Virus record (IMG/VR): IMGVR_UViG_3300037424_001177
Location: 32,001-96,000 of that record
DNA length: 64,000 bases
Direction: 5' to 3' (one strand)
From: a virus
Part shown: one piece after another, positions 3,634 through 22,730 of the stretch
Numbering within the stretch: position 1 is the first letter of the stretch
Layout of the letters: each line of letters begins with the position of its first letter
The notes under the pieces: generated by a model
Databases searched by the model: none
What the model was told of the DNA's origin: nothing
The model's input: the letters and a program-made list of their open reading frames with translations, nothing else
Made by a program: the position numbers and the translations under genes

Positions 3634-4601
3634 GTTTGGTCTTTGTTTTTCGTACCGACGTACACGCGGCTGATCGGGCTCCTCCTAGCTGGAAAGGAGA
3701 TTACTTGGCCGAGATCCTGTCTAGCCTCACACAAATTGGAGAGATTGCTAAGGCACGTCGTGCTGTGGCTGTTTTGGATGGCGGAGACTTTATTCACGTT
3801 AAGACCGCGTCCAGGACGTCACACGCACTTGTTGTGAAGGTGTTGGAGTTGCACGCGAACTACCCGTGTCCTGTCTGGTGTGTCGAGGGTAACCACGATG
3901 TCGTCGGGGACAATTTGGACACGATATCGCAGCAACCGTTGGGCGTCTTGTATCAGACCTGTTTTCGACATCTCCGTGACGTTGTCTTCGAGGACGGGGA
4001 CTTGAGGGTGCGTGTAGTGGGCGTTCCGTACAGTGCCCATAGGACGGTGGAAGAGATCCAGGCAATACGAAAACAACCGGGGGACACACATTTGATTGCT
4101 TTGGTCCACGCGTTGGCTGGCGAGAATCCGCCGGCACACGTCGAGGAGTTTTTTGGCGAGCCAGTTTTCCGGTATCAAGCTCTCATCTACGAAGGCGGTC
4201 CGGATGCATTTTTATTTGGCCATTGGCATCGGGATCAAGGCATTGTGCGTTTGAATGGTCGAATCTTCGTCAATCAAGGCGCTGTGTCTCGAGGCGCGTT
4301 GACACACGAGAACATCAACCGTGTGCCGAAGGTAGCTGTCTTGACGGTTACACAGGACGGCATTGAGGTGGAGGACATTCCTCTGTCTGTGGCACCTCCT
4401 GAAGAGGTTTTTGACTTCGATCGGAAGACCAGAGAAGACCAACAGGTTGTTGTGATCAATCAGTTCGTGAAACAACTTGAGACGGAGCTTGAAACGTCTG
4501 CGGATGATGACTTCGTGACTAGCGTCGAGAAGCTAGACTTTGCACCAGAGGTACGGGTACGTGCGTTGGCTTACCTGGAACGGGCTCGCATTGCTTCATG
4601 A
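3630..4601 (+). CDS. SbcD/Mre11-like metallophosphoesterase nuclease
   Basis: DVH, GGDFIH, GNHD and FGHWH calcineurin-like motifs. Confidence 0.9.
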   Translation: MSLVFVFRTDVHAADRAPPSWKGDYLAEILSSLTQIGEIAKARRAVAVLDGGDFIHVKTASRTSHALVVKVLELHANYPCPVWCVEGNHDVVGDNLDTISQQPLGVLYQTCFRHLRDVVFEDGDLRVRVVGVPYSAHRTVEEIQAIRKQPGDTHLIALVHALAGENPPAHVEEFFGEPVFRYQALIYEGGPDAFLFGHWHRDQGIVRLNGRIFVNQGAVSRGALTHENINRVPKVAVLTVTQDGIEVEDIPLSVAPPEEVFDFDRKTREDQQVVVINQFVKQLETELETSADDDFVTSVEKLDFAPEVRVRALAYLERARIAS

Positions 4602-5509
4602 TCAGACCTGACAGTCTTTGGGACGGGTACGTCTCGTATTCCGGTCGAAAGCTGTACGAGAACTGTCCCTACGCCTATTGGCATCGTTACGTGAACTGTA
4701 CGGTTTTGCCTGGGTTGCCAGACACACTTGCAACCCTTTATGGGGACGCCGTGGGCAACCTGTTCGGCAGATTTTATGTCGATGAGGGTTGGCGGGACGA
4801 TGATGCCACAGCTTGGTTGTTGGCACGTGTTGACGAGACTGTGACGCGTACGATACGTTATCGCACACAGAACAAGGATGGGAGTCCTAAGGCGTATTTA
4901 GGTTGGCAGGACGCTGAGCATCCCAAAGCGCTCTACGTTGACCGGAATGAACTTGTGTCGGATGTGCGGGCCACAGTCGCTCGTGGTCTCCAGATAATTC
5001 GGCACTACAGGTTACTCGGCAAAGAGGTTCTCGTTGAACACAAGTTGGACTTGCGTCTCCCGGCCGCGACCCTTGCAGGACGGTCTGATTTCATGATGCG
5101 TAGGACCCGGCCCAACAACGATCGTGTGATCTTGGATGGCAAGGGATCTCGCTGGCGGGGGAAGTACGAAGACCCCAAACAGCTGGCTTGGTACGCAATG
5201 CTCTGTGAGCGTCGCTATGGTTACGTGCCAGATCGTCTGGGTTTTGTTTTCTGGAGGTACTGGCCGCCAGAAAGTGTCGACTGGTATGAGCCTGTAAAAA
5301 ATGATCTAGACGACCTCTACGAGGCCACTCTTGGTGTTGTTGTAGAGATTCGTGGACTGTTACGCCGTCTAGCCGACGGCGAGGACCCTGATCAGGTCTT
5401 CGAGCCTAAGCCGACGCGTCAGCAGTGCCAGTTTTGTGACTACTCGTTTGGGTGCAAGAAAAAATATGACGCCAGAAATGATTCAAGCCAAGGTCGAGGA
5501 GCTGAGTAG
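4598..5509 (+). CDS. PD-(D/E)XK RecB/AddB/Cas4-like nuclease, probable Fe-S cluster
   Basis: SYS..LYENCP, GRSD, LDGKG, QLAWYA and C-terminal CQFCDYSFGC (1+3 Cys arrangement). Confidence 0.8.
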   Translation: MIRPDSLWDGYVSYSGRKLYENCPYAYWHRYVNCTVLPGLPDTLATLYGDAVGNLFGRFYVDEGWRDDDATAWLLARVDETVTRTIRYRTQNKDGSPKAYLGWQDAEHPKALYVDRNELVSDVRATVARGLQIIRHYRLLGKEVLVEHKLDLRLPAATLAGRSDFMMRRTRPNNDRVILDGKGSRWRGKYEDPKQLAWYAMLCERRYGYVPDRLGFVFWRYWPPESVDWYEPVKNDLDDLYEATLGVVVEIRGLLRRLADGEDPDQVFEPKPTRQQCQFCDYSFGCKKKYDARNDSSQGRGAE

Positions 5510-5744
5510 ACGTTACGCCACTGCTTCGGAGAAGCGGAGCACCTTGGGCGGACTCTTAGCTGCCAAGAAACAGGAGCTGATTGCCCTGACTCAGGAAATC
5601 GAGAAGGCAGGGTACAATCCGAAGACGCTGAAGGAGACCCGGGAGAAGCTACAAGCGGATCTCGAGGAGCGATTGAAAGACTTTGAAGGCAAACTACAAG
5701 AAGTAGAGAAGGCGCTAGCTGCGTTTGAAGGGGAAATGAAATAA
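5466..5744 (+). CDS. small coiled-coil protein
   Basis: ATG at 5466; the whole protein is heptad-like and E/K/L/Q-rich. Confidence 0.6.
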   Translation: MTPEMIQAKVEELSRRYATASEKRSTLGGLLAAKKQELIALTQEIEKAGYNPKTLKETREKLQADLEERLKDFEGKLQEVEKALAAFEGEMK

Positions 5745-5746
5745 GG

Positions 5747-6901
5747 ATGATCCGAACCTTTCGTTACCCTCTCCGGCCTACCAAGGCTCAGGCCACAACT
5801 ATCGAAGATTGGCTGCGGCATTGTCGTTGGTTGTACAACGGAGCGTTGGAAGAGAGGATCTCATACTACAGGAAATTTGGTAAAGGGCTCACAAGGATCG
5901 ATCAGCAAAAATCTCTCACGGAACTGCGCTCGGATGACCTCTCCTGGACACAGATCCCGCTGAACGTTCTCCGATCTTCTCTTCGGAAGCTCGAGTTAGC
6001 CTACCAAGGCTTCTTTCGGCGTTTGAAGAAGGGCGAGACGCCCGGCTTCCCACGCTTCAAAGGAGCTAATAGGTTTCGTTCGTTTTCTCTTCAAAAATCA
6101 ACTAAGGTTGAGCACAAGGTCAAAGGATCTCAAGCCAAGGTTTGGATCCCAAAACTTGGATGGGTGCACTTTCACGAATACCGACCTATCCAAGGTAAAC
6201 TTTTGGATGTCTCGCTCCGTAAGGAGCATGACGACCGATGGTTTGTTTGCTTCCAGTGTGATTTAGGCAAGGCACCTGAAGTTTCAATTGATCCAACGAA
6301 GTCGGTAGGGATCGATCTAGGACTCAGACATTTTGTGACCCTCTCAAATGGTGAGACAATCGAGAATCCTCGATTCTTTCGAAAGTCGGAGAAGGTGCTT
6401 GCCGAACGGCAGCGCACTTTGCAACGCAAGCGCCGTGGCTCCAACTCTCGAATAGTGGCCAATAGACTCGTTGCTAAGGCACATCTTTGGATCCGAAATC
6501 AACGACTCGATTTCTCTAGGAAGCTGTCTAAACAATTATTTACAAGATTTGATGTGATCTTCCACGAGGACCTCAACATCAAAGGGATGACACGATCCCT
6601 GAATTTTGGAAAATCAGTCAACGATGCTGCTTGGGGTATTTTTCTCCGATCCTTAGCTTACAAAGCGGAAGAAGCTGGTAAGCTCTTGATCGGAGTTGAT
6701 CCAAGAGGAACCACACAACGGTGCAGTGGCTGCGGTGAGCACGTCCCAAAGGGACGTGCTCACCGCAGCCACCTGTGTCCCTCGTGTGGGCTCAACTTGG
6801 ACCGGGATCACAATGCGGCCCTAAACATTCAAACGCTCGGCTTGAGCGTGGTACTAGAACACACGAGGCCGGTGAAGCTTGCTATCGGTGTTCTATCTTA
6901 A
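5747..6901 (+). CDS. tnpB: TnpB (IS200/IS605-family RNA-guided endonuclease); no tnpA nearby
   Basis: MIRTFRYPLRPT HTH start, GFPRFK, RuvC residues GIDLG / FHEDL / DRDHNAA all intact, Zn ribbon CSGC...CPSC. Confidence 0.95.
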   Translation: MIRTFRYPLRPTKAQATTIEDWLRHCRWLYNGALEERISYYRKFGKGLTRIDQQKSLTELRSDDLSWTQIPLNVLRSSLRKLELAYQGFFRRLKKGETPGFPRFKGANRFRSFSLQKSTKVEHKVKGSQAKVWIPKLGWVHFHEYRPIQGKLLDVSLRKEHDDRWFVCFQCDLGKAPEVSIDPTKSVGIDLGLRHFVTLSNGETIENPRFFRKSEKVLAERQRTLQRKRRGSNSRIVANRLVAKAHLWIRNQRLDFSRKLSKQLFTRFDVIFHEDLNIKGMTRSLNFGKSVNDAAWGIFLRSLAYKAEEAGKLLIGVDPRGTTQRCSGCGEHVPKGRAHRSHLCPSCGLNLDRDHNAALNIQTLGLSVVLEHTRPVKLAIGVLS

Positions 6902-6921
6902 GTCCAAGGAGTGCTGGTCAA
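5747..6921 (+). mobile_element. tnpB-only (IS1341-like) element; putative right end at TCAA 6918-6921
   Basis: tnpB ORF followed 17 nt after its stop by TCAA, a typical IS200/IS605 right-end tetranucleotide. The left end could not be identified. Confidence 0.45.
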
Positions 6922-6950
6922 TTGTGGCCTAGTAGTTATTTTGGGCAAAG

Positions 6951-8237
6951 TTGAGAGATGAAATGAAGGTCAGAGTACAGCTGAAGGATCTGAATGAGGC
7001 TTTGAACCGTGTCTCGGTAGTCAAGCCTTTGAGTGTGGACCACGAGAAAGCCTACCTGTTCACTACACAGGATGACCAGATGTTGGTTCATTCTCAGGAC
7101 CGCTTTCACTACTCTCGAGTGTCCATACCGTGCGAAATGGTTGATGGTGAAGGCGCCATGATGTTTTCGTGGCCGGCTGATCGTGTCGAAGCTTTGAAGC
7201 ATTTGAACGGTTGGATTGAGATTGAGCCTGGCAAGGACGGAGACCGCCATTGGGTAAAGTATCGTACCGAGGAGGGCGTCACTGCTGACCGATCGTCACA
7301 TGATCCAGATTTCTATAAATCTGCATTTACGAGTATCAAGAGAAGCGCACAGGATACGGACTACGTGTTCTCGACAGTACTCTTGCGGGAAGCCTTGTCA
7401 CAGGTGGCGGACTACTTGGCACCTGACGGCACCGATGAGTCGAATCCGTTGCGTGTTGCACAGTTGTTCGACAGTGCTCGTCCAGAGTACGCATCTGGTA
7501 ATGGTACCTTTTTTGCGGCGGACGGACAACGTGTTTGTCACTTCCATAGTCCGTCACTGAAGGACAAAGGGTTTGGCGTTCACGCGCACCATGTCCCTAT
7601 GTTGATCAGTTACTTGTCAAAATGTTCTCCGACAGTCCGTGTACAGGTTGAAGAGCGGATGTGTTTCGCGAAAGACCAGGTCCCCGGCTCGTCGGAGATC
7701 AAGTCAGTATTTGGTTGGACGAAACACGTTCAAGAGCATAGTCGCTACGGCTATCCGCCGGACGAATACGCCAAGTTCATTCTGCGTGTGCCTCGAGATC
7801 AGATTGTTCGAGCGCTGCGGCAGATGATTGCAGAGTTCGGGGACCGTCCACAAGACAAGGTGCGCATCACGTACGAAGATTCAAAGCTGCTGTTTCGTTG
7901 CAGTTTGGATTCGGATGTCGTGACGAGCATGCCCGTCGAGACAGACCCTGTCCGGCAGGCGGATAAACCTGTGTTTTCTGCAAACATCAACATTCGTAGT
8001 TTTTTGGCCTTATTTGACAAGTCCAAGAGTCATTTGGTGGAGCTTCGTGCATTGTTGATACCCTCCAAGGCTGCTGCTACCGCAGGCGGTGAGGAGAAAA
8101 AAAGCTCGACTCGTTTGGCCTTTTGTACAGTGGACGAATATCACTTAACGGAATCAGGAAAATTGGTGGTTCCTACTGAAGGACAAGAGGGAGCACACCT
8201 GTGTCAAGTGTCGCGCTTCACAACGTCCATGACGTAG
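6951..8237 (+). CDS. DNA sliding clamp, DnaN/beta-like (likely start ATG 6963)
   Basis: MKVRVQLKDLNEALNRV start, FAADGQRV resembling the beta-clamp ATDGHRL motif, NINIRSFLALF, ~420 aa, and a dnaX-like gene in the same module. Confidence 0.65.
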   Translation: MRDEMKVRVQLKDLNEALNRVSVVKPLSVDHEKAYLFTTQDDQMLVHSQDRFHYSRVSIPCEMVDGEGAMMFSWPADRVEALKHLNGWIEIEPGKDGDRHWVKYRTEEGVTADRSSHDPDFYKSAFTSIKRSAQDTDYVFSTVLLREALSQVADYLAPDGTDESNPLRVAQLFDSARPEYASGNGTFFAADGQRVCHFHSPSLKDKGFGVHAHHVPMLISYLSKCSPTVRVQVEERMCFAKDQVPGSSEIKSVFGWTKHVQEHSRYGYPPDEYAKFILRVPRDQIVRALRQMIAEFGDRPQDKVRITYEDSKLLFRCSLDSDVVTSMPVETDPVRQADKPVFSANINIRSFLALFDKSKSHLVELRALLIPSKAAATAGGEEKKSSTRLAFCTVDEYHLTESGKLVVPTEGQEGAHLCQVSRFTTSMT

Positions 8238-8884
8238 CGGATCTCACGCGGCGCACAGATCTGGTCGTACAGAAAGCCGTCAAGCTACGCACTTTGCGGG
8301 ACTCCGCACAGTCTGATGCAGATTCTTGTGCGAAAAAAATTCGCGATCTGGACGCAGAGATCGAGATTCTGTCCAAGGTCGGTGAGCTGTTTCACATTTT
8401 GATGGATCAGCTCGTCAACCAACAAGTTCGTTCTGTAGAGCGTGTGGCGACGGAAGGCTTACACACAGTGTTCCACGATCTGAATCTCAGTCTGGAGTCG
8501 GAGGTCGGTCCGAAGTACAACAAGATTTCAGTCGAATTCGCCGTACGTCGAGGAACTCTAGACGATCCTTTTTCACATGTCGGACCTCCTCTGGACTCAT
8601 TCGGAGGAGGCCCTAGTTCCGTGGTATCTTTGATCCTGAGAATCTTGGCGATCAAGAAATTGAAGCTTTGGCCATTTCTGATCTTGGATGAGTCGTTGGC
8701 GGCTGTGTCTGACGACTACGTAGACGCCGCGGGGCGTTTCATTCGAGATTTAGCGGACCGTCTCGGTTTCGACGTCCTTCTGGTCACACAGAAGACCGCT
8801 TTCCTGGATCACGCACACTCGGCTTACCGGTGTCAAGAGGAAGAGGTCTCTGATGGTACCCATCTCGTTTTGCGTCGAGCGTAG
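8201..8884 (+). CDS. SbcC/Rad50-like ATPase, C-terminal half (signature, Walker B)
   Basis: Short coiled coil, then DSFGGG (signature-like), FLILDES (Walker B), LAAVS (D-loop region), LLVTQ (H-loop position). No Walker A. Confidence 0.8.
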   Translation: MSSVALHNVHDVADLTRRTDLVVQKAVKLRTLRDSAQSDADSCAKKIRDLDAEIEILSKVGELFHILMDQLVNQQVRSVERVATEGLHTVFHDLNLSLESEVGPKYNKISVEFAVRRGTLDDPFSHVGPPLDSFGGGPSSVVSLILRILAIKKLKLWPFLILDESLAAVSDDYVDAAGRFIRDLADRLGFDVLLVTQKTAFLDHAHSAYRCQEEEVSDGTHLVLRRA

Positions 8885-8890
8885 TTAGCG

Positions 8891-9415
8891 ATGCGATCAC
8901 GACAAGAAGTCGAGGCTCGTGTCCGCTACCTTGTGAATGAGGAGTTGGTCAGACGACTAGCTGAGATCGAGCAGTGTCAGCCACATCATTGCAAGCACAA
9001 CTATCGACATCCTCTTGACACTCGCCGTCGGATCGGTGAGACAGCCAATCCCAACTACAACAGGATTGCGTTGGCGGGTGAAGCGACGATCGGTTTGTGT
9101 ATGTTAGGGTCGGAGGATGTCGTGTCGTGGCCCGGCACGATTTGTGAAGACGTTGAGATGGCACTGGCGTGTCCGTACTACACTTCGAAAACAACCAGAG
9201 GTGATGTTTTAACAACATATCGCGACCAACTACAAGACCTTGCTTGGCTTGAGCAAAACTTGCCCCAAGTATTTGAACTTGTGTGGGTACTGCAAGCTGT
9301 TTCTGCACCAACCCTGACTTGGTGGCAAAGCCTTATTTTAGTGTGGAGGACCAGACGGAGCAAGTGGTTGAGGGCAGTGTCCAGACGCTTGAGCTTGCAA
9401 CGATTAGGTGAGTGA
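8891..9415 (+). CDS. hypothetical Cys/His-containing protein
   Basis: ORF tightly packed in the operon; CQPHHCKH and additional Cys residues. Confidence 0.55.
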   Translation: MRSRQEVEARVRYLVNEELVRRLAEIEQCQPHHCKHNYRHPLDTRRRIGETANPNYNRIALAGEATIGLCMLGSEDVVSWPGTICEDVEMALACPYYTSKTTRGDVLTTYRDQLQDLAWLEQNLPQVFELVWVLQAVSAPTLTWWQSLILVWRTRRSKWLRAVSRRLSLQRLGE

Positions 9416-10035
9416 AAATGTTGGTGTCCGCTCTTCGATGCTGCTTGCAGTTTGAGCGTATTGGGCGTCGGATGGGGCCCGATGGTGATTTCGTGGCTCC
9501 TATTTGTGGGGCCCGTCAGGTTCGTGAGAATGACACCCCTGTCGTCGTTTCATTGACTAGCGGAAAGTTCACCGTCACTCGACCTCTTGAGGGTATGGTG
9601 CGTCACGCTTTCACTGTTTGTGAGATGGAAAAAGAAGCCTCTCTTTTGAGCGCGTTGTACAGTGAGCTGGACAAGCTGTCGACTTTTCACTCGTGGGGAA
9701 ATCGCTGCACTTCTTTTCGACCAGCGTACGATAAAGTCAGAGAAGCAGGTTTGTACCCAAGCTCTCTTGTCTTGCCATACAAACTCTTGCACCTTGTTTG
9801 CGAGGGAGGTCTATCCGAGAGCGATGCAGATCATTTGATGCTGACGCGCGGCTGTGTCACGACTGTCCAATCTCTCAAAGTAGTTTGTGCGGGGGATGCT
9901 TTGGCTGACAATGCTGCTCTCATGTTCGCGGAGCCGAAGGATGCGGGCTTCTACTTCCGTTCTGATGACCATGTGTCCGTGTGTTTGACCAAGGCCGATC
10001 GTGCTGTGGTTGTGATTCATGACTTGGCTAGATGA
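9412..10035 (+). CDS. hypothetical protein
   Basis: GTGA overlap with the upstream gene; operon-like packing. Confidence 0.55.
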   Translation: MKMLVSALRCCLQFERIGRRMGPDGDFVAPICGARQVRENDTPVVVSLTSGKFTVTRPLEGMVRHAFTVCEMEKEASLLSALYSELDKLSTFHSWGNRCTSFRPAYDKVREAGLYPSSLVLPYKLLHLVCEGGLSESDADHLMLTRGCVTTVQSLKVVCAGDALADNAALMFAEPKDAGFYFRSDDHVSVCLTKADRAVVVIHDLAR

Positions 10036-10714
10036 CCTTGTCCACCATGCTCAGGGCTTAGACGGAACACAGGCACAGGAAGCTCTGTGGGCACGAGGAG
10101 CATCAAGCGAACAGATCGCTCGACACCAAGTGGGATTTTTGAATTCCCCTTTGCCTTCTCTCGTGCCGAAGGAGTTTCAGTTGTGGTGGGCGGGTCGAAA
10201 GCTGGACAACGCTTTCCTCTTTCCCCTAACGGACGCTCTTGGGTGCGTGCGAGGACTTCAGTTTCGAAGCATCGACCAAGCTGTTCGCGGGTACCACGAC
10301 TATGTAGTGGACCGCAACGTGCTGTGCTCGTTTGGCCTAGGGGCTACGGCCCCGATAATTTGGGCAGCACAACGCGCCGTGTTGGTTGAGGGCGTCTTTG
10401 ATTTCTTCCCTGTTGAGCGTGTGTTCCCGGAGACAGCTGCGGTTCTTGGCTTGTCTCCGTCGCGCCTGATGCTCAGATTTCTCCGACGCATGGTTTCGGA
10501 CATAGTTCTCCTAGCTGACGCGGATTTGGAGGGTAGGCGGGCTGTGCGGCGATTTCAGGATCATTACGGCGCGGAGTTCCGGATACAGGACGTCTGTTTG
10601 CGCGTGGCCAGAAAACGAGGCGGGATGACCAAAGATCCCGGCGAGTTGTGGGAGGAACTTGGTGACGCCGAATTGCGACGACTTTTTGTTGGTGCCGGTG
10701 TTGTGGCGATTTGA
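10019..10714 (+). CDS. DnaG-type primase (Toprim core, no Zn-binding domain)
   Basis: FPL..GLQFRSI, LVEGVFD, LADADLEG (DxD), KDPGE. Confidence 0.8.
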   Translation: MTWLDDLVHHAQGLDGTQAQEALWARGASSEQIARHQVGFLNSPLPSLVPKEFQLWWAGRKLDNAFLFPLTDALGCVRGLQFRSIDQAVRGYHDYVVDRNVLCSFGLGATAPIIWAAQRAVLVEGVFDFFPVERVFPETAAVLGLSPSRLMLRFLRRMVSDIVLLADADLEGRRAVRRFQDHYGAEFRIQDVCLRVARKRGGMTKDPGELWEELGDAELRRLFVGAGVVAI

Positions 10715-10729
10715 AGGAGGTCCCAAATT

Positions 10730-11239
10730 ATGTCGAAAGTCTGGTCTGAAGGTGAAGCTGTGCAAAAGGTCGCGGTGGCGTTGATTCCAAAATACCACTC
10801 TGAGTTGGCGGATGCTCGTTTGATGTACGTCTTTGTAAGTGAAGCATCGACCGACAAGAATGGACGTCAGGTCCCAGGGAAATCCCGGCGGATCACTGGC
10901 TTCCTAGAGTGGGCTCTGGATTGCGATTTCGTCATCGAGATCGCGGCCGATGTGTGGAAGACGCTCGATGCGGATCAACGCACCGCGTTAGTTGACCATT
11001 ACTTGGAGCGCTGCACAGGTGAGGAGGACGAAGAGACAGGGGAGATGACCTGGAAGCTTCGGGAGCCCGACGTCTCCGAGTTCCAAACGATCCTGGAGCG
11101 GCACGGTGCCTGGCATGATCAGCTGACAGGGTTTGTGTCCGTTGCGCAGAAGATCGACATTTCGTTCTTGTCGACTGATAGCTTGCAGGAAGCTGATCAA
11201 GAGACAAACGGTAGCAGCGACCTCTTACAGTCCACCTGA
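10730..11239 (+). CDS. putative phage metallopeptidase-like protein
   Basis: DFVIEI..W..L..QR.ALVDHYLERC...REPDVSEF..I.ERHG pattern; the HExxH motif is degenerate (HYLER). Good SD AAGGAGG. Confidence 0.6.
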   Translation: MSKVWSEGEAVQKVAVALIPKYHSELADARLMYVFVSEASTDKNGRQVPGKSRRITGFLEWALDCDFVIEIAADVWKTLDADQRTALVDHYLERCTGEEDEETGEMTWKLREPDVSEFQTILERHGAWHDQLTGFVSVAQKIDISFLSTDSLQEADQETNGSSDLLQST

Positions 11240-11251
11240 TCGCTGTCAGCG

Positions 11252-12649
11252 ATGTGGGATGTTAGGTACAGGCCGCTGCGGTTCAGCGACGTGCTCGGCC
11301 AAGAGGGAGCCGTCCAAGTCCTGAAGTCGCGTTTGCGTCGAGGCACAGGGCTCGACACGAGCTACATTTTCAGTGGAGGAGCTGGACGCGGCAAAACAAC
11401 CCTGGCCCGCATCCTGGCCCGCGCTTTGTTGTGTCAGGCCCTAACTGAGGACTCTGAGCCGTGCAATCAGTGTGAAAACTGCCTCGATACACTGAATGAG
11501 ACTGCCCCGGCTTTGCAGGAGATGGACGCCGCTAGTCGAGGCACTATCGACAATGTCAGAGCCATTGTCGATAGCTTGCCGTTTTTGGTCGCAGGCGCGA
11601 CGAAACGAATTTACATTTTCGACGAAGTCCATCGCATGAGTCGGGACGCCCAGGATGTGCTTCTGAAGCCGTTGGAAGACAAACTACTAGTAGGTATTTT
11701 CTGTACTACGGAACCTGACAAGATACGGACACCGATCCGTTCCCGTTGTGAGGAGCACCAGATTCGGAGGATTACTCGGGAACACGTGTTTGCACGTCTT
11801 ACGTTGGTTCTTACTCAAGAGGGCGTGACGTACGAAGACGACGCTGTGTGGACGGTGGTGGACCACTCCTTGGGGCATGTGCGTGACGCTCTAAACACGT
11901 TGGAGATGCTAGCCCAGTTGGGTCCTGTCACGCTGACTTCGGCACGTGAGCACTTGAATCTATCGGATGTTGCACGGTACTATGAGATCCTATTGGCTCT
12001 TGGCGACACTCCCACAGCAGTACAGTTGATCGAGGAGATCTGTGATCGTGTTTCTCCGGAGACAGTTTCTGAGGGCTTGGCTGAGGCTGCGATGAACAGC
12101 TTTCGTCTGGCCAACAACATGGTAGCCGACTACTCACGTGTCGATCGTGACTTGGCGGCTCGTGTTTGGACTAAATACCAAGCCGGCGTGATCCGTTTGG
12201 TTGAATACTTGATGAAGCCTGGACGTGTTACACGATCAAGTTTGATCTGCGATGCTGTCTTGTGTGCTTCTGGCGCTCCTGACAGACCGACTCAGCCTTC
12301 AATTCCCAGTCTATCTGCCGTTATATCACCACAGGTCCCCCCGCTACAACACAATCCGGACAAGCTTGTCGTAGCGGCACCTACAGTGCTACAACACAAT
12401 CCAGCAAAGCTTGTCGTAGCGGCACCTACAGTGACTGGGTTGCGTGCAGACGGGATCGGAAATTTGGGATCCCCTGATGTGCAGGCGTTGACATCCATGG
12501 ATGTGGTGGCCGTTCCTCGAGAGGCGTCACGAGGACAGAAAACGGATCCAGTACCGAAGCCTAAAGTTCTCTCACGAGAAGGATTTTTGACGCCTCCGGA
12601 ATGGCGACTGAAATTTTGGCAACTCCACACCACTCTGGCAGGCGCGTAA
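11252..12649 (+). CDS. dnaX: DNA polymerase III gamma/tau (clamp loader)
   Basis: YRPLRFSDVLGQ, GGAGRGKTT, C..PCNQCENC, EMDAAS, FDEVHRMS, SRC. Confidence 0.92.
   Translation: MWDVRYRPLRFSDVLGQEGAVQVLKSRLRRGTGLDTSYIFSGGAGRGKTTLARILARALLCQALTEDSEPCNQCENCLDTLNETAPALQEMDAASRGTIDNVRAIVDSLPFLVAGATKRIYIFDEVHRMSRDAQDVLLKPLEDKLLVGIFCTTEPDKIRTPIRSRCEEHQIRRITREHVFARLTLVLTQEGVTYEDDAVWTVVDHSLGHVRDALNTLEMLAQLGPVTLTSAREHLNLSDVARYYEILLALGDTPTAVQLIEEICDRVSPETVSEGLAEAAMNSFRLANNMVADYSRVDRDLAARVWTKYQAGVIRLVEYLMKPGRVTRSSLICDAVLCASGAPDRPTQPSIPSLSAVISPQVPPLQHNPDKLVVAAPTVLQHNPAKLVVAAPTVTGLRADGIGNLGSPDVQALTSMDVVAVPREASRGQKTDPVPKPKVLSREGFLTPPEWRLKFWQLHTTLAGA
12343..12432 (+). repeat. 45-bp tandem duplication inside dnaX (LQHNPxKLVVAAPTV x2)
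   Basis: gctacaacacaatccggacaagcttgtcgtagcggcacctacagt is followed by a near-identical copy starting at 12388. Confidence 0.9.
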
Positions 12650-12682
12650 TTTGTGGGCGAGCGAGACCCTAAGGTTCAGACA

Positions 12683-12724
12683 ATGATCCGAACCTTCCGT
12701 TACCCTCTCCGGCCTACCAAGGCT
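12683..12724 (+). repeat. 42-bp copy of the tnpB 5' end (41/42 identical to 5747-5788)
   Basis: atgatccgaaccttccgttaccctctccggcctaccaaggct versus atgatccgaacctttcgttaccctctccggcctaccaaggct. Confidence 0.95.
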
Positions 12725-12765
12725 ACAACACACAGGCAAGTTTTGCACGTCTGTGTGTTGTAGTC
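12721..12765 (+). promoter_or_regulatory. strong hairpin upstream of the NusG fusion gene
   Basis: ctacaacacacag (12723-12735) is the exact reverse complement of ctgtgtgttgtag (12751-12763); an inner gcaa/ttgc pair is also possible. Confidence 0.6.
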
Positions 12766-12777
12766 GAAGTCTGGTTT

Positions 12778-14634
12778 ATGGACAAAGCCGGCGAATGGGT
12801 AGTCCTTGAGTTGAGCTCTCGTGGTGAGCAAGAGGACCCCAAGATCCTTTCGGACGCTATTACACGATCACTGAAGGGCGCTGAGGTATTTGTCCCGGCT
12901 GCTGTGTCTGTAGTCGGTGGCAGCCGAACCTATCAGTATTTGGTGGACGGCTACGCATTTGTCAAACTTGACGGTCGCCGTCGAACTGACGATTTCTTCA
13001 AACTCGAGGGCACCAAGTTCGTGACTTCCGTCCTGGTGAAACCCGGACACAATAGGACTTTGTCAACTGTAGGCGATGACGCTATACAGAAATTACAAAA
13101 TCAGATACACACGTTCACGGATCAGGGCATAGGTATTGGCGATGTCGTCGTGATCACTACAGGCATATATCATGGTTTGCAAGCTGACGTTTACGAGGAG
13201 ATACCGGAACGTGACATGGTACAAGTTCGTCTCAAGTTGAGATCCAAGGAAGCCTTGTTGACGATTCCTCGATCTGCCTTGCAAGTTGTGGAGCGAGCCA
13301 CGTGGTCCAATCAGCGCGATCGTATTGATCTTTTGCTGAAGTGGACTCGTGACACCCAAGTGATTTTCTGTTGGAACTCTTTGACGCCGGATCTTTTGGT
13401 GAGTGTCTATCGGGATTTTCGATCTGTCAATCAGTGGTACGTTTCTGGTCGTTATTTGTGCGGATTCTTGGCTTTTGATACCACGATTCGGCAACAATGG
13501 CAGTTGTTGAATCGTGATTGTGTCGGCTACAACCGTCTCCATCGTCTGGAGAGTCGTGGACATTTGTTGTGTGCGTTTGTTGTCGCGTATCGTTTGTCCG
13601 AGACTGGCCTGCGAACGATACGTCAGTGGTGGCGCCACCTAAAACATGTGGCGAGCATAGTTGAGCGTTTGCAGAGACTTTGGGAAGAGGTCGACAACTT
13701 GTCACGACAGTTTTCGTCACAACAAGAGGATGGAGGGAAGTTGATACACAACGTCATCGTAGACGGTCACGCTTTGGCGTACCGTTGCTTCTACGCTAAA
13801 GGCCTGAACACTCTGACACATCAAGGGGAGCCGTCCGGAGCCGTCCTCGGATTTTTTCGCAGCTTGGCTTCGCTCCGAAAGCGTTACTCGACTGCGGCCT
13901 TGCGGGTGGTGTGGGATGGGTCCTCTGCACGTCGCAAGGCCCGATATACCGCCTACAAGGCCACGAGGAAGTCTCAGGACATCTCGTGGGTGGTTGCTAC
14001 GCTGCGCACACTGCTACCAGTTGTAGGGGTCAGACAACACTGGAACCCTGCTGAGGAGGCGGATGATGTGATTGCGACTTTGGTGAGGCACGATCTGGTT
14101 GATCAGAACAACCTCATCTTTTCGTCGGACCGGGATTTCCTACAGTTGGTTACTGACCGTACACATGTTTTGGTGCCAGCTACGGGTGCACGTAATGAAG
14201 TGCTCTTTGATCCTGCGGAGGTATCTCGTCGCTTTGGGGTACCACCTGGAAAGATGCTCGAATTGCGAGCTATGTTTGGTGACTCGAGCGATAATTTGAC
14301 CGGTGTCTGTCGAGTGCCGAAGAAAGTGCTCACGGATCTCTTGAAAGCCTACGGCTCTGTTGACAGGGTCTATCAGTCCGGGCTGGCGTCTGTGACAAAG
14401 GCGCAGTATGCTCGTTTGCAGACTGCGGAGTCGACAGTCAAGTTGAACCTGGAACTGATGTCCCTACAGGACGTGGACGTAACAACGATCTCTGCGGAGC
14501 CTGATCAAGCCTCCGCCACCAGACGTTTGCAGTCCATTGGCATACAATCTGAAGGTTTGTTGTCTGCATTTTTTCCGCAGTCGGATGTCGTAGTTGGTAA
14601 CGACTCGCAGGACTACATGTCACTTGCGATTTAA
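12778..14634 (+). CDS. NusG-like (NGN+KOW) domain fused to a PolA-type 5'-3' exonuclease/flap endonuclease
   Basis: N-terminus: WVVL..GE, VFVP, LVDGYAFV, IGIGDVVVITTGIYHG (KOW). C-terminus: IVDGHALAYR, VWDG, RK..Y.AYKATR, EADDVIATL, SSDRDFLQL, GDSSDN. Confidence 0.8.
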   Translation: MDKAGEWVVLELSSRGEQEDPKILSDAITRSLKGAEVFVPAAVSVVGGSRTYQYLVDGYAFVKLDGRRRTDDFFKLEGTKFVTSVLVKPGHNRTLSTVGDDAIQKLQNQIHTFTDQGIGIGDVVVITTGIYHGLQADVYEEIPERDMVQVRLKLRSKEALLTIPRSALQVVERATWSNQRDRIDLLLKWTRDTQVIFCWNSLTPDLLVSVYRDFRSVNQWYVSGRYLCGFLAFDTTIRQQWQLLNRDCVGYNRLHRLESRGHLLCAFVVAYRLSETGLRTIRQWWRHLKHVASIVERLQRLWEEVDNLSRQFSSQQEDGGKLIHNVIVDGHALAYRCFYAKGLNTLTHQGEPSGAVLGFFRSLASLRKRYSTAALRVVWDGSSARRKARYTAYKATRKSQDISWVVATLRTLLPVVGVRQHWNPAEEADDVIATLVRHDLVDQNNLIFSSDRDFLQLVTDRTHVLVPATGARNEVLFDPAEVSRRFGVPPGKMLELRAMFGDSSDNLTGVCRVPKKVLTDLLKAYGSVDRVYQSGLASVTKAQYARLQTAESTVKLNLELMSLQDVDVTTISAEPDQASATRRLQSIGIQSEGLLSAFFPQSDVVVGNDSQDYMSLAI

Positions 14635-19967: not shown

Positions 19968-21953
19968 ATGGCTGCAAATATCGACACTCCCGCTGGGTCG
20001 CTTGCGGCACTCATACGACAAGCTGGTAGGGATATTGCCAAGGTAGATGGCGACAACAACGTAATAGCTCCGATTTTTGATGTGCTCACGTATGCCGAGA
20101 GTTCTTGGGGACTCGGCATGAAGCTCTACCCGGTTCAGCGATTCATCATCAAGCTCTACTACGGACTCGATCTGTCGGATCGTTTGCCGGATGACCTGCC
20201 GGATCGGATCGTCATCACGGACATGTTCAAAACTCGTACGTTGTATGAGTTTACGGAGGTAGAGTACCTTCACTATTTGTACAATGAGGGTCGTTGTAAC
20301 ATCAACGAGCCGTCATATGACCGACGTGAATTGGTTTTGGCTGTTGGTCGACGGTCTGGCAAGACTGCCATGGCAGGGATTTTTGCAAGCTACGAGGTCT
20401 ATCGGCTACTGAATCTGTATGACCCTCAAGCATACTACGGACTCATTGACGGCAGTCGGATCCAGCTGACGTCCATTGGCACGGACAAGGAACAAGCTGG
20501 ATTGTTGTTCAATGAGGTGGCAACACATGTTGGGAGATGTTCGTACTTCAAGCCGTTCATCGCCAACAACAACCTCACGTTCATGAACTTTCGCACACCG
20601 CGTGATCTCGAGAAACACGGGGTCTCTACTCGAGAGAGTGATGGTAAGTACACGACGTTTTCTGGTAAAGCGTCGATTCGTGTGACTTTCAAACCTTGTG
20701 TCGCACGGAGCCTGCGCGGTCCAGGTAACATCTTGGTTGTGCTGGATGAGGTCGCGCATTATTTGACGAAGGGCGGGAGGTCAGCTGAAGAGATTTACTC
20801 GGCATTGACACCTTCGACCGCGGCGTACACACGAAAGGACCCGATTACAAAACGAATTCTTATTGATTCAGTGACACAACAGGAAGCCCTCGTTGAGTCG
20901 AGAATCATTCTGATCTCTTCACCTTTGGGTAAGTCAGGGAAGTTTTTCGATCAGTACGATTTGGCGATGCGTAACGACCCTGGTGCTGCGTACACCTTGG
21001 CGATTCAAGCTCCGACCTGGGAGGTCAACCCAACAGTCTCTGGTGCTTACTTTCGGACTGAGTACCACAAAAACGCCGTTGTGTTCATGACGGAGTATGG
21101 TGCCAGATTTTCCGATCAAAGCGTTGGGTGGATTGAACGCAAGTCTGATTTGTTGGCTTGCGTCGACCGTGACTTGAGGCCTAAGTCCCGTGCTCGTCCT
21201 CGTGAACCTCACCAGATGGGGTTAGACGTAGGTTTGGTCAATGATGGTACAGTGATTTGTATCACACACCCGGAGCGCAACACTGTCGTCCTGGACTACC
21301 ATGAGGTTTGGCGTGCAGGGTGCCAGTGGAAAGACCTAAACCCGCATTTGGAAGGCCGCTATTCGACCGAGTTTGCAAAGTCTTTGCAGGATGTGGAACG
21401 GCTAGATTTTGACGAGATCGCCAAGTGGATTGAGCTAGTCTGTTCGTGGTTTCACGTCACAGCTGGCTTGTTCGACAGGTGGAACGGTTTGCCTTTGGAG
21501 CAGACGTTACACAAGAAGGGGCTCAAGCAATTCACGTCACAGTTTTTCACGCCTGATCAACGTAGCAAGATGTTCCAAAACGCCAAGATGTTGATGTACG
21601 ACGGTCGACTTCGGCTCTACGACTACCCTATTCCAGAGCGGGCTCGTGATGGAGAGCGCCACTCGGACCTCATCCTCGAGCTGTTTGCTTTGCAAGCTAC
21701 TTTGAAGACGAAGTACATGGTGAACGTCCAAGCACCTCAGAAGCACGGTTCTTTCGACGACTCTGCTGACGCATACGTACGAGCTGTGTCTCTCTCTTCA
21801 GAGTTTCTCGAAAATCAGAAACATGCGGCCACCGGCTCGTTGTTTTCGCGAGATCCTACCTACACGACTATGACGCCTCGTCGATACCAGATGATGCGGG
21901 CACGTCGCCACGGGGTTTCTCCGCGGTTCGTTCCTCGACGTGCCAGGTTCTGA
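19968..21953 (+). CDS. terminase large subunit
   Basis: LYPVQ, VGRRSGKT (Walker A), VVLDEVAH (Walker B), ISSP, GLDVG and DDSADA (RNase H-like nuclease). Confidence 0.9.
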   Translation: MAANIDTPAGSLAALIRQAGRDIAKVDGDNNVIAPIFDVLTYAESSWGLGMKLYPVQRFIIKLYYGLDLSDRLPDDLPDRIVITDMFKTRTLYEFTEVEYLHYLYNEGRCNINEPSYDRRELVLAVGRRSGKTAMAGIFASYEVYRLLNLYDPQAYYGLIDGSRIQLTSIGTDKEQAGLLFNEVATHVGRCSYFKPFIANNNLTFMNFRTPRDLEKHGVSTRESDGKYTTFSGKASIRVTFKPCVARSLRGPGNILVVLDEVAHYLTKGGRSAEEIYSALTPSTAAYTRKDPITKRILIDSVTQQEALVESRIILISSPLGKSGKFFDQYDLAMRNDPGAAYTLAIQAPTWEVNPTVSGAYFRTEYHKNAVVFMTEYGARFSDQSVGWIERKSDLLACVDRDLRPKSRARPREPHQMGLDVGLVNDGTVICITHPERNTVVLDYHEVWRAGCQWKDLNPHLEGRYSTEFAKSLQDVERLDFDEIAKWIELVCSWFHVTAGLFDRWNGLPLEQTLHKKGLKQFTSQFFTPDQRSKMFQNAKMLMYDGRLRLYDYPIPERARDGERHSDLILELFALQATLKTKYMVNVQAPQKHGSFDDSADAYVRAVSLSSEFLENQKHAATGSLFSRDPTYTTMTPRRYQMMRARRHGVSPRFVPRRARF

Positions 21954-21959
21954 GGTTGT

Positions 21960-22208
21960 ATGGATTCTGTTGAGATACCAGACGTGATCTTCGCGAATCG
22001 TGTGATTCGTCAGTTCGTGGACCACTTATGTGGAGAAGACCTTGTGACGTCTACGCAGGACTTTGCCGCGATTCGAAATGTGTTTCGGAGATGTCGGGGA
22101 AACTGGGAGGCGCTGGTTAGCGGATCCATGTTGCAGCTCAGCTTGTTGGAAAAAGTAATAGCTGCGTGGAGCAAGATGCCAACACGTACTCGAACACCCA
22201 AGGACTGA
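21960..22208 (+). CDS. hypothetical protein
   Basis: SD GAGG; packed ORF. Confidence 0.5.
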   Translation: MDSVEIPDVIFANRVIRQFVDHLCGEDLVTSTQDFAAIRNVFRRCRGNWEALVSGSMLQLSLLEKVIAAWSKMPTRTRTPKD

Positions 22209-22211
22209 GAC

Positions 22212-22730
22212 GTGTCAGAGCAATTTCGCACGCGAGACTGCGTGATCTTGTTTCGTAGTGACGAGTACCCCGTCATTGTATCTGAAGCGTTGGCCGCGGG
22301 AGGATGGCCTGGAGGCCAAGGAATTCGTTGGGTTCCTTCTACGAGAGATGAGTTTTTGGTCACCTATTCTGATGGTGAGCCGGGTGGTTTCATTCTTTGG
22401 GGTTCTAACGAGATCTCAGATCAGTTCACATCGATGACTCGTAACCAGCCGTTTTATCGAGTTTCGACCATGGCCGTAGGGTCGTGGCTTATCATGACCT
22501 CGACTTACGAGCGCTACACCTACGCCTCTCGAACAGCAGGTCCCCTTGTACCGCTGGCGTACAACGCTTCAGATCGTTTGCGTTTCTCTCTTCGTGGTTT
22601 TTGGACAGTGGAAGACGAGTGGACGCTCTCGGCTGATCCACGGGCTCCAAACACAAACTACACAGGTCTTGTTGTTCAAGCACCAACCGCGGTGACCGAG
22701 GACTACTTGACCGTCCAGACGACCTTGTAA
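22212..22730 (+). CDS. decoration-protein-like paralog 1
   Basis: Shares RTRDCV, GGWPGGQG, WGS.E, TYERYTYASR and RGFWT with the next two ORFs; C-terminal half aligns by eye with the 31963 protein. Confidence 0.6.
   Translation: MSEQFRTRDCVILFRSDEYPVIVSEALAAGGWPGGQGIRWVPSTRDEFLVTYSDGEPGGFILWGSNEISDQFTSMTRNQPFYRVSTMAVGSWLIMTSTYERYTYASRTAGPLVPLAYNASDRLRFSLRGFWTVEDEWTLSADPRAPNTNYTGLVVQAPTAVTEDYLTVQTTL

Follow-up and report, generated by a model that had tools for sequence, protein, structure and literature searches.

A probable core-deleted remnant of a tnpB element at the start codon of a NusG-like/exonuclease gene in a jumbo phage

The window analyzed here (the whole stretch of 64,000 nucleotides) comprises bases 32001-96000 of a 159-kb IMG/VR virus record (IMGVR_UViG_3300037424_001177, here G000) from a jumbo phage lineage. 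The record is a fragment that spans about half of a phage genome of roughly 300 kb, and the empty-site comparison uses one close relative, the sister phage G001 (IMGVR_UViG_3300036760_000522), a 301.5-kb contig with terminal repeats. G000 is collinear with 165 kb of G001 in blocks that are 68-97% (mostly 80-96%) identical. At the locus under study, a clamp-loader gene is followed by a gene for a fusion of a NusG-like N-terminus and a 5'-3' exonuclease (NusG-exonuclease), and the gap between the clamp-loader stop and the ATG of the second gene measures 128 nt. The features of the window that are needed in the following are:

5747-6952, plus strand: resident tnpB element (ORF 5747-6901, 384 aa), absent from the sister phage
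11252-12649: clamp-loader gene (Pfam DNA_pol3_delta2)
12653-12661, plus strand: relic of the original NusG-exonuclease start, GTG GGC GAG, recognized from the sister-phage alignment and the N-termini of homologues
12662-12795 (equivalently 12656-12789), plus strand: 134 nt that are extra in the alignment with G001 (the insert)
12662-12682, plus strand: left 21 nt of the insert, CGAGACCCTAAGGTTCAGACA, presumably the remainder of a left end; its TAAGG is also found at 5742-5746
12683-12724, plus strand: copy of tnpB codons 1-14, MIRTFRYPLRPTKA
12721-12765, plus strand: hairpin (CTACAACACACAG) with a 17-bp stem (13 perfect pairs) and an 11-nt loop, from RNA folding
12764-12772, plus strand: TCGAAGTCT, the CCGAAGTCC motif of the TnpB clade, also found in loci L011, L109, L110, L112, L114, L124, L143, L150, and L017
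12778-14634, plus strand: NusG-like / 5'-3' exonuclease gene, 618 aa, codons 1-4 ATG GAC AAA GCC, then the duplicated GGC GAA
12780-12789, plus strand: GGACAAAGCC, right-end terminal motif (GGNCAAAR plus 2 nt); the next base is the start of the target, the would-be guide

In the product of the NusG-exonuclease gene, the 5'-3' exonuclease is clear and the NusG-like N-terminus is weak (E 0.007, under the Pfam cut-off). The fusion (12778-14634; loci L186-L214) is conserved in many phage contigs of 100-530 kb, and its position right after the clamp-loader gene suggests a replication-linked role. A blastn search of 11800-13600 against a phage GenBank collection returned no match, and a search of metagenome contigs with the NusG-exonuclease as the only query found nothing. 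A third contig (P0121) also encodes a 95% identical NusG-exonuclease, and TnpB genes of 58-59% identity exist in non-JGI sources.

An earlier note, made from the letters alone, had described a near-copy of the start of tnpB that runs into a perfect hairpin ahead of the NusG-exonuclease. The copy was borne out: 12683-12724 is identical to the tnpB start (5747-5788) at 41 of 42 positions, with C12697 vs T5761 as the sole mismatch, and 100 shuffles gave zero such pairs. TnpB relatives (36-60% identity) often share the first residues MIRTFRYPLRPTKAQE, with DNA that differs at many synonymous sites. Because relatives with the same peptide differ at these sites, the 41/42 identity reflects recent shared descent with the resident tnpB copy. 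That the identity begins exactly at the ATG, as had also been claimed, holds for an ungapped comparison, but TAAGG upstream is likewise common to both copies; it is immediately adjacent to the ATG in the full copy and 8 nt more distant from it in the insert. Downstream of the 42-mer, ACAAC matches again after a 6-nt gap. The left 21 nt (12662-12682) have no match elsewhere in G000 or G001, and their 5' half pairs weakly with tnpB codons 3-5 (AAGGTTC/GAACCTT, 7 bp, -8.4 kcal/mol).

The 13-bp inverted repeat (12723-12735 / 12751-12763) is indeed perfect and lies where it had been placed. Upon RNA folding, its stem grows to 17 pairs (12721-12737 / 12749-12765, including two G-U pairs) with a dG of -28.0 kcal/mol. 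Six perfect short-loop repeats of at least 13 bp are found in the window, against an expectation of 0.03. The 26-codon ORF reported earlier (12683-12763) was recovered as well: it encodes MIRTFRYPLRPTKATTHRQVLHVCVL and ends with TAG (12761-12763) in the 3' arm of the hairpin, 14 nt ahead of the ATG at 12778. Its frame stays open upstream to the GTG at 12653, which extends the ORF to 36 codons (12653-12763). Pattern scans of IMG/VR, exact as well as degenerate (42-mer, peptide-degenerate 42-mer, hairpin arms), gave zero matches, and no further copy of the insert was found in the 159-kb record, the 301-kb sister, or, with the exact patterns tried, IMG/VR.

Membership of the hairpin in a genome-wide repeat family (GCYACAAC...GTYGTRGY) was considered and rejected: apart from the hairpin, only the 45-nt tandem units of the clamp-loader gene and one unrelated site fit the pattern, and in a whole-window scan the similarity stayed at chance level. 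The tandem units themselves, at 12343-12432 in the linker region of the clamp-loader gene, are a duplication that is present as a single copy in the sister phage. Each 45-nt unit forms a hairpin, GCTACAACA..TGTCGTAGC, that reads GCCACAACA..TGTCGTGGC in the sister phage, with both arms altered and the pairing kept.

The sister phage provides the empty counterpart of the locus. Its NusG-exonuclease is 95% identical, the DNA flanking the insert is 92-94% identical, and the junction of the two genes (L005, about 3985-4010) reads TAA-CTT-GTGGGCGAG-TGGGTAGTCC, i.e., GTG GGC GAG TGG GTA GTC, with the GTG of the NusG-exonuclease 3 nt after the clamp-loader stop and no insert. In the window, TAA TTT GTG GGC GAG is followed by 134 extra nt that end with ATG GAC AAA GCC GGC GAA, and then by TGG GTA GTC, which places the insert between GGCGAG and TGGGTAG. 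A direct repeat of 6 nt, GGCGAG (12656-61) and GGCGAA (12790-95), surrounds the insert, and in the whole-genome comparison the flanks overlap by 6 nt in G001. Most of the closest homologues, retrieved from among 5.8 billion proteins, start with M/V-G-E-W-V-V-L-E-L. Furthermore, at 29 IMG/VR loci (24 distinct) the clamp-loader gene lies directly upstream, and its stop is located between -8 and +42 nt from the NusG-exonuclease start. Given the MGEW-type starts of the homologues and the abutting genes in the 24 distinct relatives, the ancestral state at this start is the empty one. The comparison of the intergenic region that the earlier note had proposed (empty site, full tnpB, or scar) yielded an empty site in the sister phage and the 24 distinct relatives; since the hairpin and the mini-ORF are absent from all of these, both are to be regarded as lineage-specific. 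An assembly artefact is ruled out by the unique sequence on either side of the 42-nt repeat and by the intact reading frame.

The resident element from which the 42-mer is known is present in full. Its product (5747-6901) contains HTH, OrfB_IS605, and Cas12f-like TNB domains, and no TnpB is found in G001, where the flanks of 5747-6952 meet with a 17-nt overlap. The empty site of G001 reads GGAGAAATGAAATGAAGG, in which the stop of the upstream gene and the start of the downstream gene overlap (ATGA). An imperfect target repeat of about 12-17 nt surrounds the full element, with GGGGAAATGAAAT-AAGG on the left (5730-5746) and GAGAGATGAAATGAAGG on the right (6953-6969); the left copy provides the last codons and the stop of the upstream gene, and the right copy the start of the downstream gene. 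Neither G000 (a fragment) nor G001 gave a match to Y1_Tnp or Resolvase, the domains of Y1 and serine tnpA, and the resident element is therefore classified, by its apparent gene content, as tnpB-only.

Two observations on this TnpB clade were made alongside. In the zinc-finger region of the resident tnpB, 6726-6772 is a perfect 22-bp palindrome with a 3-nt loop that encodes ...CSGCGEHVPKGRAHRSHLCPSCG where relatives have ...VPKGLSxRxH...; its 3' arm looks as if the complement of the 5' arm had replaced it, the frame is still open, and the palindrome may represent either a stem of the guide RNA or a product of template switching. Moreover, the contig Ga0207933_1000001 (465,854 bp; L106, L109, L110) carries at least three tnpB copies that are 56-60% identical to the resident one, and this clade seems to turn up repeatedly among large phage genomes.

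The 3' half of the insert was compared with the 3' architecture of the TnpB clade, which was derived from relatives in IMG/VR and JGI metagenomes (22 non-redundant ones for hairpin and spacer). At the tnpB end of these relatives, a conserved hairpin (GCGCTCGG..GAGCGC) is followed by a spacer and the motif CCGAAGTCC (YCGAAG). The spacer before YCGAAG folds at -7.5 kcal/mol or better in 14 of the 22 relatives, into a hairpin of variable size. In the sub-clade closest to the phage, the terminus is GGNCAAAR plus 2 nt, beyond which the similarity between elements ends. This right-end motif is also located after tnpB in L108, L109, L110, and L015, and the full right-end architecture is seen in only about four relatives. 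The resident element itself ends with GGGCAAAGTT at 6943-6952. The 3' half of the insert follows the order of the clade (hairpin, TCGAAGTCT, GGACAAAGCC) with the same spacing and on the same strand, its hairpin (12721-12765) taking the position of the variable hairpin before the CCGAAG motif in the 3' (guide-RNA) region. In the insert and in the full element alike, the right-end motif stops exactly where the similarity to G001 resumes. When both strands of 460 kb were scanned for a loose form of the motif pair, five occurrences were counted, one of them being the insert, and the chance of finding the pair within 70 nt of the 42-mer was derived as about 3e-4, for a pattern that was refined after the insert had been seen and is partly post hoc. 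The rarity of the motifs is taken as support, not as proof, for a putative transposon right end.

At the level of alignment, the 3' half is much less similar to the resident copy than the 5' part. Local alignment against the resident 3' end or the rest of the window gave nothing above chance; a global alignment with the resident 3' end reached a z of about 3.5, a value attained by 3 of 1000 shuffles and 6 of 1000 random windows. The alignable 3' blocks are about 75% identical to the resident element (30/40 by hand count) and are separated by large indels, compared with 98% in the 5' part. Furthermore, the conserved GCGCTCGG..GAGCGC stem of the relatives and the full copy is missing, and only the last roughly 70 nt are left. 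Because of the mismatch between 5' and 3' identity and the large indels, the insert does not look like a twin of the resident copy that has simply suffered a deletion; the two identities suggest a mosaic origin or a gene conversion of the 5' end.

We consider it probable that the insert is a core-deleted, single-copy remnant of a tnpB-only element of the IS200/IS605 family (IS1341 type). The earlier note had offered as one possibility that a second tnpB insertion had left a scar after an internal deletion, and this possibility is supported: the 134 nt are an insertion relative to a 95%-identical sister, and they combine a tnpB 5' end with the 3'-end architecture of the clade. As far as can be read from the alignments, a TnpB element or an already shortened derivative is shown to have entered the lineage exactly at the NusG-exonuclease start. 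The insertion parted the ancestral GTG from codons 2 onward, and the stretch from tnpB codon 15 to the base of the hairpin in the guide-RNA region would have been lost. The deletion probably occurred by short homology at GGCT/GG, as is suggested by the GGCT/GG that the junction shares with the equivalent position of the full copy (GAGCGT-GG-TACTAGAACAC). The remainder would then consist of 21 nt from the left end and 42 nt from tnpB, followed by the hairpin, the CGAAGTC motif, and the terminus of the right end. The deletion may have followed the insertion, or an already short element may have been inserted.

The same lack of an above-chance local match in the 3' half, together with the sharply uneven identity (98% vs about 75%), would also suit an origin as filler DNA, in which a double-strand break at the gene start was patched by template switching that copied 42 nt of tnpB and by a snap-back palindrome, the 3' half being no right end at all. 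The hairpin's 5' arm starts within the last 2-4 nt of the 42-mer, short direct repeats lie on both sides of the insert, and the perfected 22-bp palindrome at 6726-6772 in the resident tnpB hints at palindrome-making template switches in this phage. Such a patchwork, however, would have had to produce the clade motifs in the correct order, spacing, and strand (the chance within 70 nt being about 3e-4) and to end at the very border that forms the right end of the family, and we regard it as unlikely.

As a core-deleted remnant of a tnpB element, the insert is an ordinary kind of transposon debris, of a core-deleted IS605-type kind that is already known. The core deletion of IS605-type elements to terminal-only forms has been documented for the PATEs of Haloquadratum walsbyi (Dyall-Smith et al. 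2011, PMC3119063). Like these, the insert is an IS605-type tnpB element minus its core with the fused ends kept, and it shares with them a near-terminal palindrome, a short conserved terminal oligonucleotide, a strain-variable presence, and a length too short for a protein. Unlike the H. walsbyi PATEs, it is present as a single copy in the phage, keeps 14 tnpB codons, has dissimilar end hairpins, and is flanked by a 6-nt target repeat (PATEs were described without one); moreover, it sits on the start codon of a gene and supplies a new start. As in a core-deleted IS200/IS605-family element, a presence/absence polymorphism with a clean empty site is seen (G001). Of the marks of PATEs and MITEs, the insert has neither multiple dispersed copies nor similar palindromes at both ends. 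Since no further copy was found in the record, G001, or IMG/VR, there is no sign of proliferation or of an active miniature element.

In Geobacillus stearothermophilus, PATE-like IS200/IS605 elements without an ORF encode guide RNAs (Meers et al., PMC10055086). The insert resembles them in being non-autonomous, in having its right end beside a potential guide, and in sharing a genome with an intact TnpB. On this precedent, the insert could be a mobilizable miniature that is moved by TnpA in trans, or a stand-alone guide locus whose guide (GGCGAATGGGTAGTCC...) is used by the resident TnpB against insert-free competitors. Both termini and the right-end hairpin are retained, the insert is present in one phage and not in its sister, and the would-be guide matches the sister's empty site at 15 of 16 positions. 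This explanation is nevertheless rather improbable, as the insert is a single copy without relatives in the record, the sister, or IMG/VR (exact patterns) and, unlike the G. stearothermophilus elements, belongs to no family of copies with shared ends. Neither phage record (G000 being a fragment) contains a Y1 or serine tnpA, and the end hairpins are unrelated (7 bp and -8.4 kcal/mol on the left, 17 bp and -28 kcal/mol on the right). The GCGCTCGG..GAGCGC stem and the remaining guide-RNA scaffold are also missing, and because most of the scaffold is gone, a stand-alone guide role seems unlikely.

If the insert is a remnant of a tnpB element, its right end has also changed the gene behind it. An in-frame ATG in this right end (TTTATGGACAAAGCC) is shown by the sister-phage alignment to be the apparent present start of the NusG-exonuclease, with MDKAGEW... 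replacing MGEW...; at the position of the new ATG, the insert reads TTTATGG and the full copy TTTTGGG. For annotation, this means that ATG GAC AAA GCC of the NusG-exonuclease is transposon DNA. A good Shine-Dalgarno sequence is missing at the old start and at the new one alike. Because the gene abuts or overlaps the clamp-loader stop in relatives, we infer that its translation was ancestrally coupled to that stop. In the present arrangement, a translational relay through the 36-codon ORF is likely: after termination at the clamp-loader stop, ribosomes would restart at the relic GTG 3 nt past the stop, translate the meaningless 36-codon ORF through the hairpin and thereby melt it, terminate at the stop codon 14 nt ahead of the new ATG, and initiate again at that ATG. 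Such an accidental relay, and not an evolved regulator, is the best reading of the leader ORF, and the remnant itself would be without evolved function. The prior chance that the old frame ends so near the new start (within 15 nt of the ATG) was estimated at roughly 4%, which fits a selection filter on the surviving insertion/deletion variant and is no pointer to an evolved regulator. The locus is a clear example of how a compact phage genome tolerates a transposon hit on a start codon, with an ATG in the transposon end and a probable relay rescuing the gene.

The earlier note had also raised the possibility that the transposon fragment had been recruited to control the NusG-exonuclease, whether as a leader peptide, an attenuator, or a loading hairpin. 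The stable hairpin (-28 kcal/mol), the short ORF directly before the gene with its stop 14 nt from the ATG, and the roughly 4% chance (as a hint at selected coupling) could be cited for it, but this had to be given up as highly improbable: hairpin and mini-ORF are absent where the genes abut, i.e., in the sister phage and the 24 distinct relatives, and the earlier note had itself named their absence from relatives among the findings that would speak against a regulatory role; they cannot be an ancestral regulator since they are lineage-specific, and the peptide consists of a tnpB N-terminus with codons attached that are out of context. The searches for regulatory signals agree with this. No terminator-like site was found at 12700-12790 (no T-run follows the stem) and no promoter nearby; Rfam, searched with 5400-13200, returned only spurious microRNA matches on the tnpB palindrome and no family for the hairpin; and 12600-12850 contains no ops-like (GGCGGTAGnnTG-like) match, the window-wide count being at chance. 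The likeness to leader-peptide attenuators and to RfaH/LoaP-type leaders is limited to a short ORF and a hairpin upstream of a gene; unlike these, the insert lacks a terminator tail, alternative pairing, conservation, and an ops-like site. Hairpin and mini-ORF should hence stay out of catalogues of regulatory leaders.

The flanking repeats of both TnpB-derived inserts are the only point with wider potential. The insertion of IS200/IS605 elements has been described as making no target duplication (PMC10055086), and the textbook mechanism does not predict the duplication seen at both inserts here. Neither insertion is free of a target-site duplication and placed directly 3' of a TAM; the target repeats measure 6 nt around the small insert and about 12-17 nt around the full element. 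The right junctions have a canonical appearance: after the right end comes the target (the would-be guide). On the left side, part of the target lies between the element and the candidate TAM (in the empty sites, TTTGAAG and CTTGTG precede the target on its 5' side). The repeats might stem from selection for events that left the two adjoining genes intact, from copying during the repair of a break made by TnpB, or from slipped excision followed by reinsertion. Both inserts lie within the would-be match of their own guide, 6 and about 12-17 nt downstream of the candidate TAM, and their left ends are differently truncated. Break-repair copying primed from the right end would fit the duplicated stretch and the differently truncated left ends. 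A general scheme, in which the TnpB elements of this jumbo-phage lineage are copied to new sites by a TnpA-independent route tied to the cut of TnpB, and the small insert is an abortive product that survived as its right end gave an in-frame ATG, is an improbable extension. Among the elements of eight relatives, a search for flank repeats pointed only to L015, with an 8-nt repeat (p = 0.013, uncorrected for the 8 tests), in a search of low power in which the known positive scored p = 0.13. In L015 (IMGVR_UViG_3300033489_000001, a 411-kb phage), TAACAGAT is located ~40 nt upstream of the tnpB ATG and again 12 nt past the GAGCAAAGCG end, and this pair may be another flanking repeat.

Further differences between the two sister phages were noted in passing. 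They differ by several insertions of 1-2 kb, at 21430-22560 in G000 (before the window) and at 145721-147014, 165902-167339, 185950-187257, and 210160-212289 in G001. Two of these are in-frame and intein-like, starting with C[FL]A.DT, and one contains an ORF with a DPPY motif that was read as methyltransferase-like. In addition, a 1.2-kb segment (G000 127965-129180) is inverted between the sister phages.
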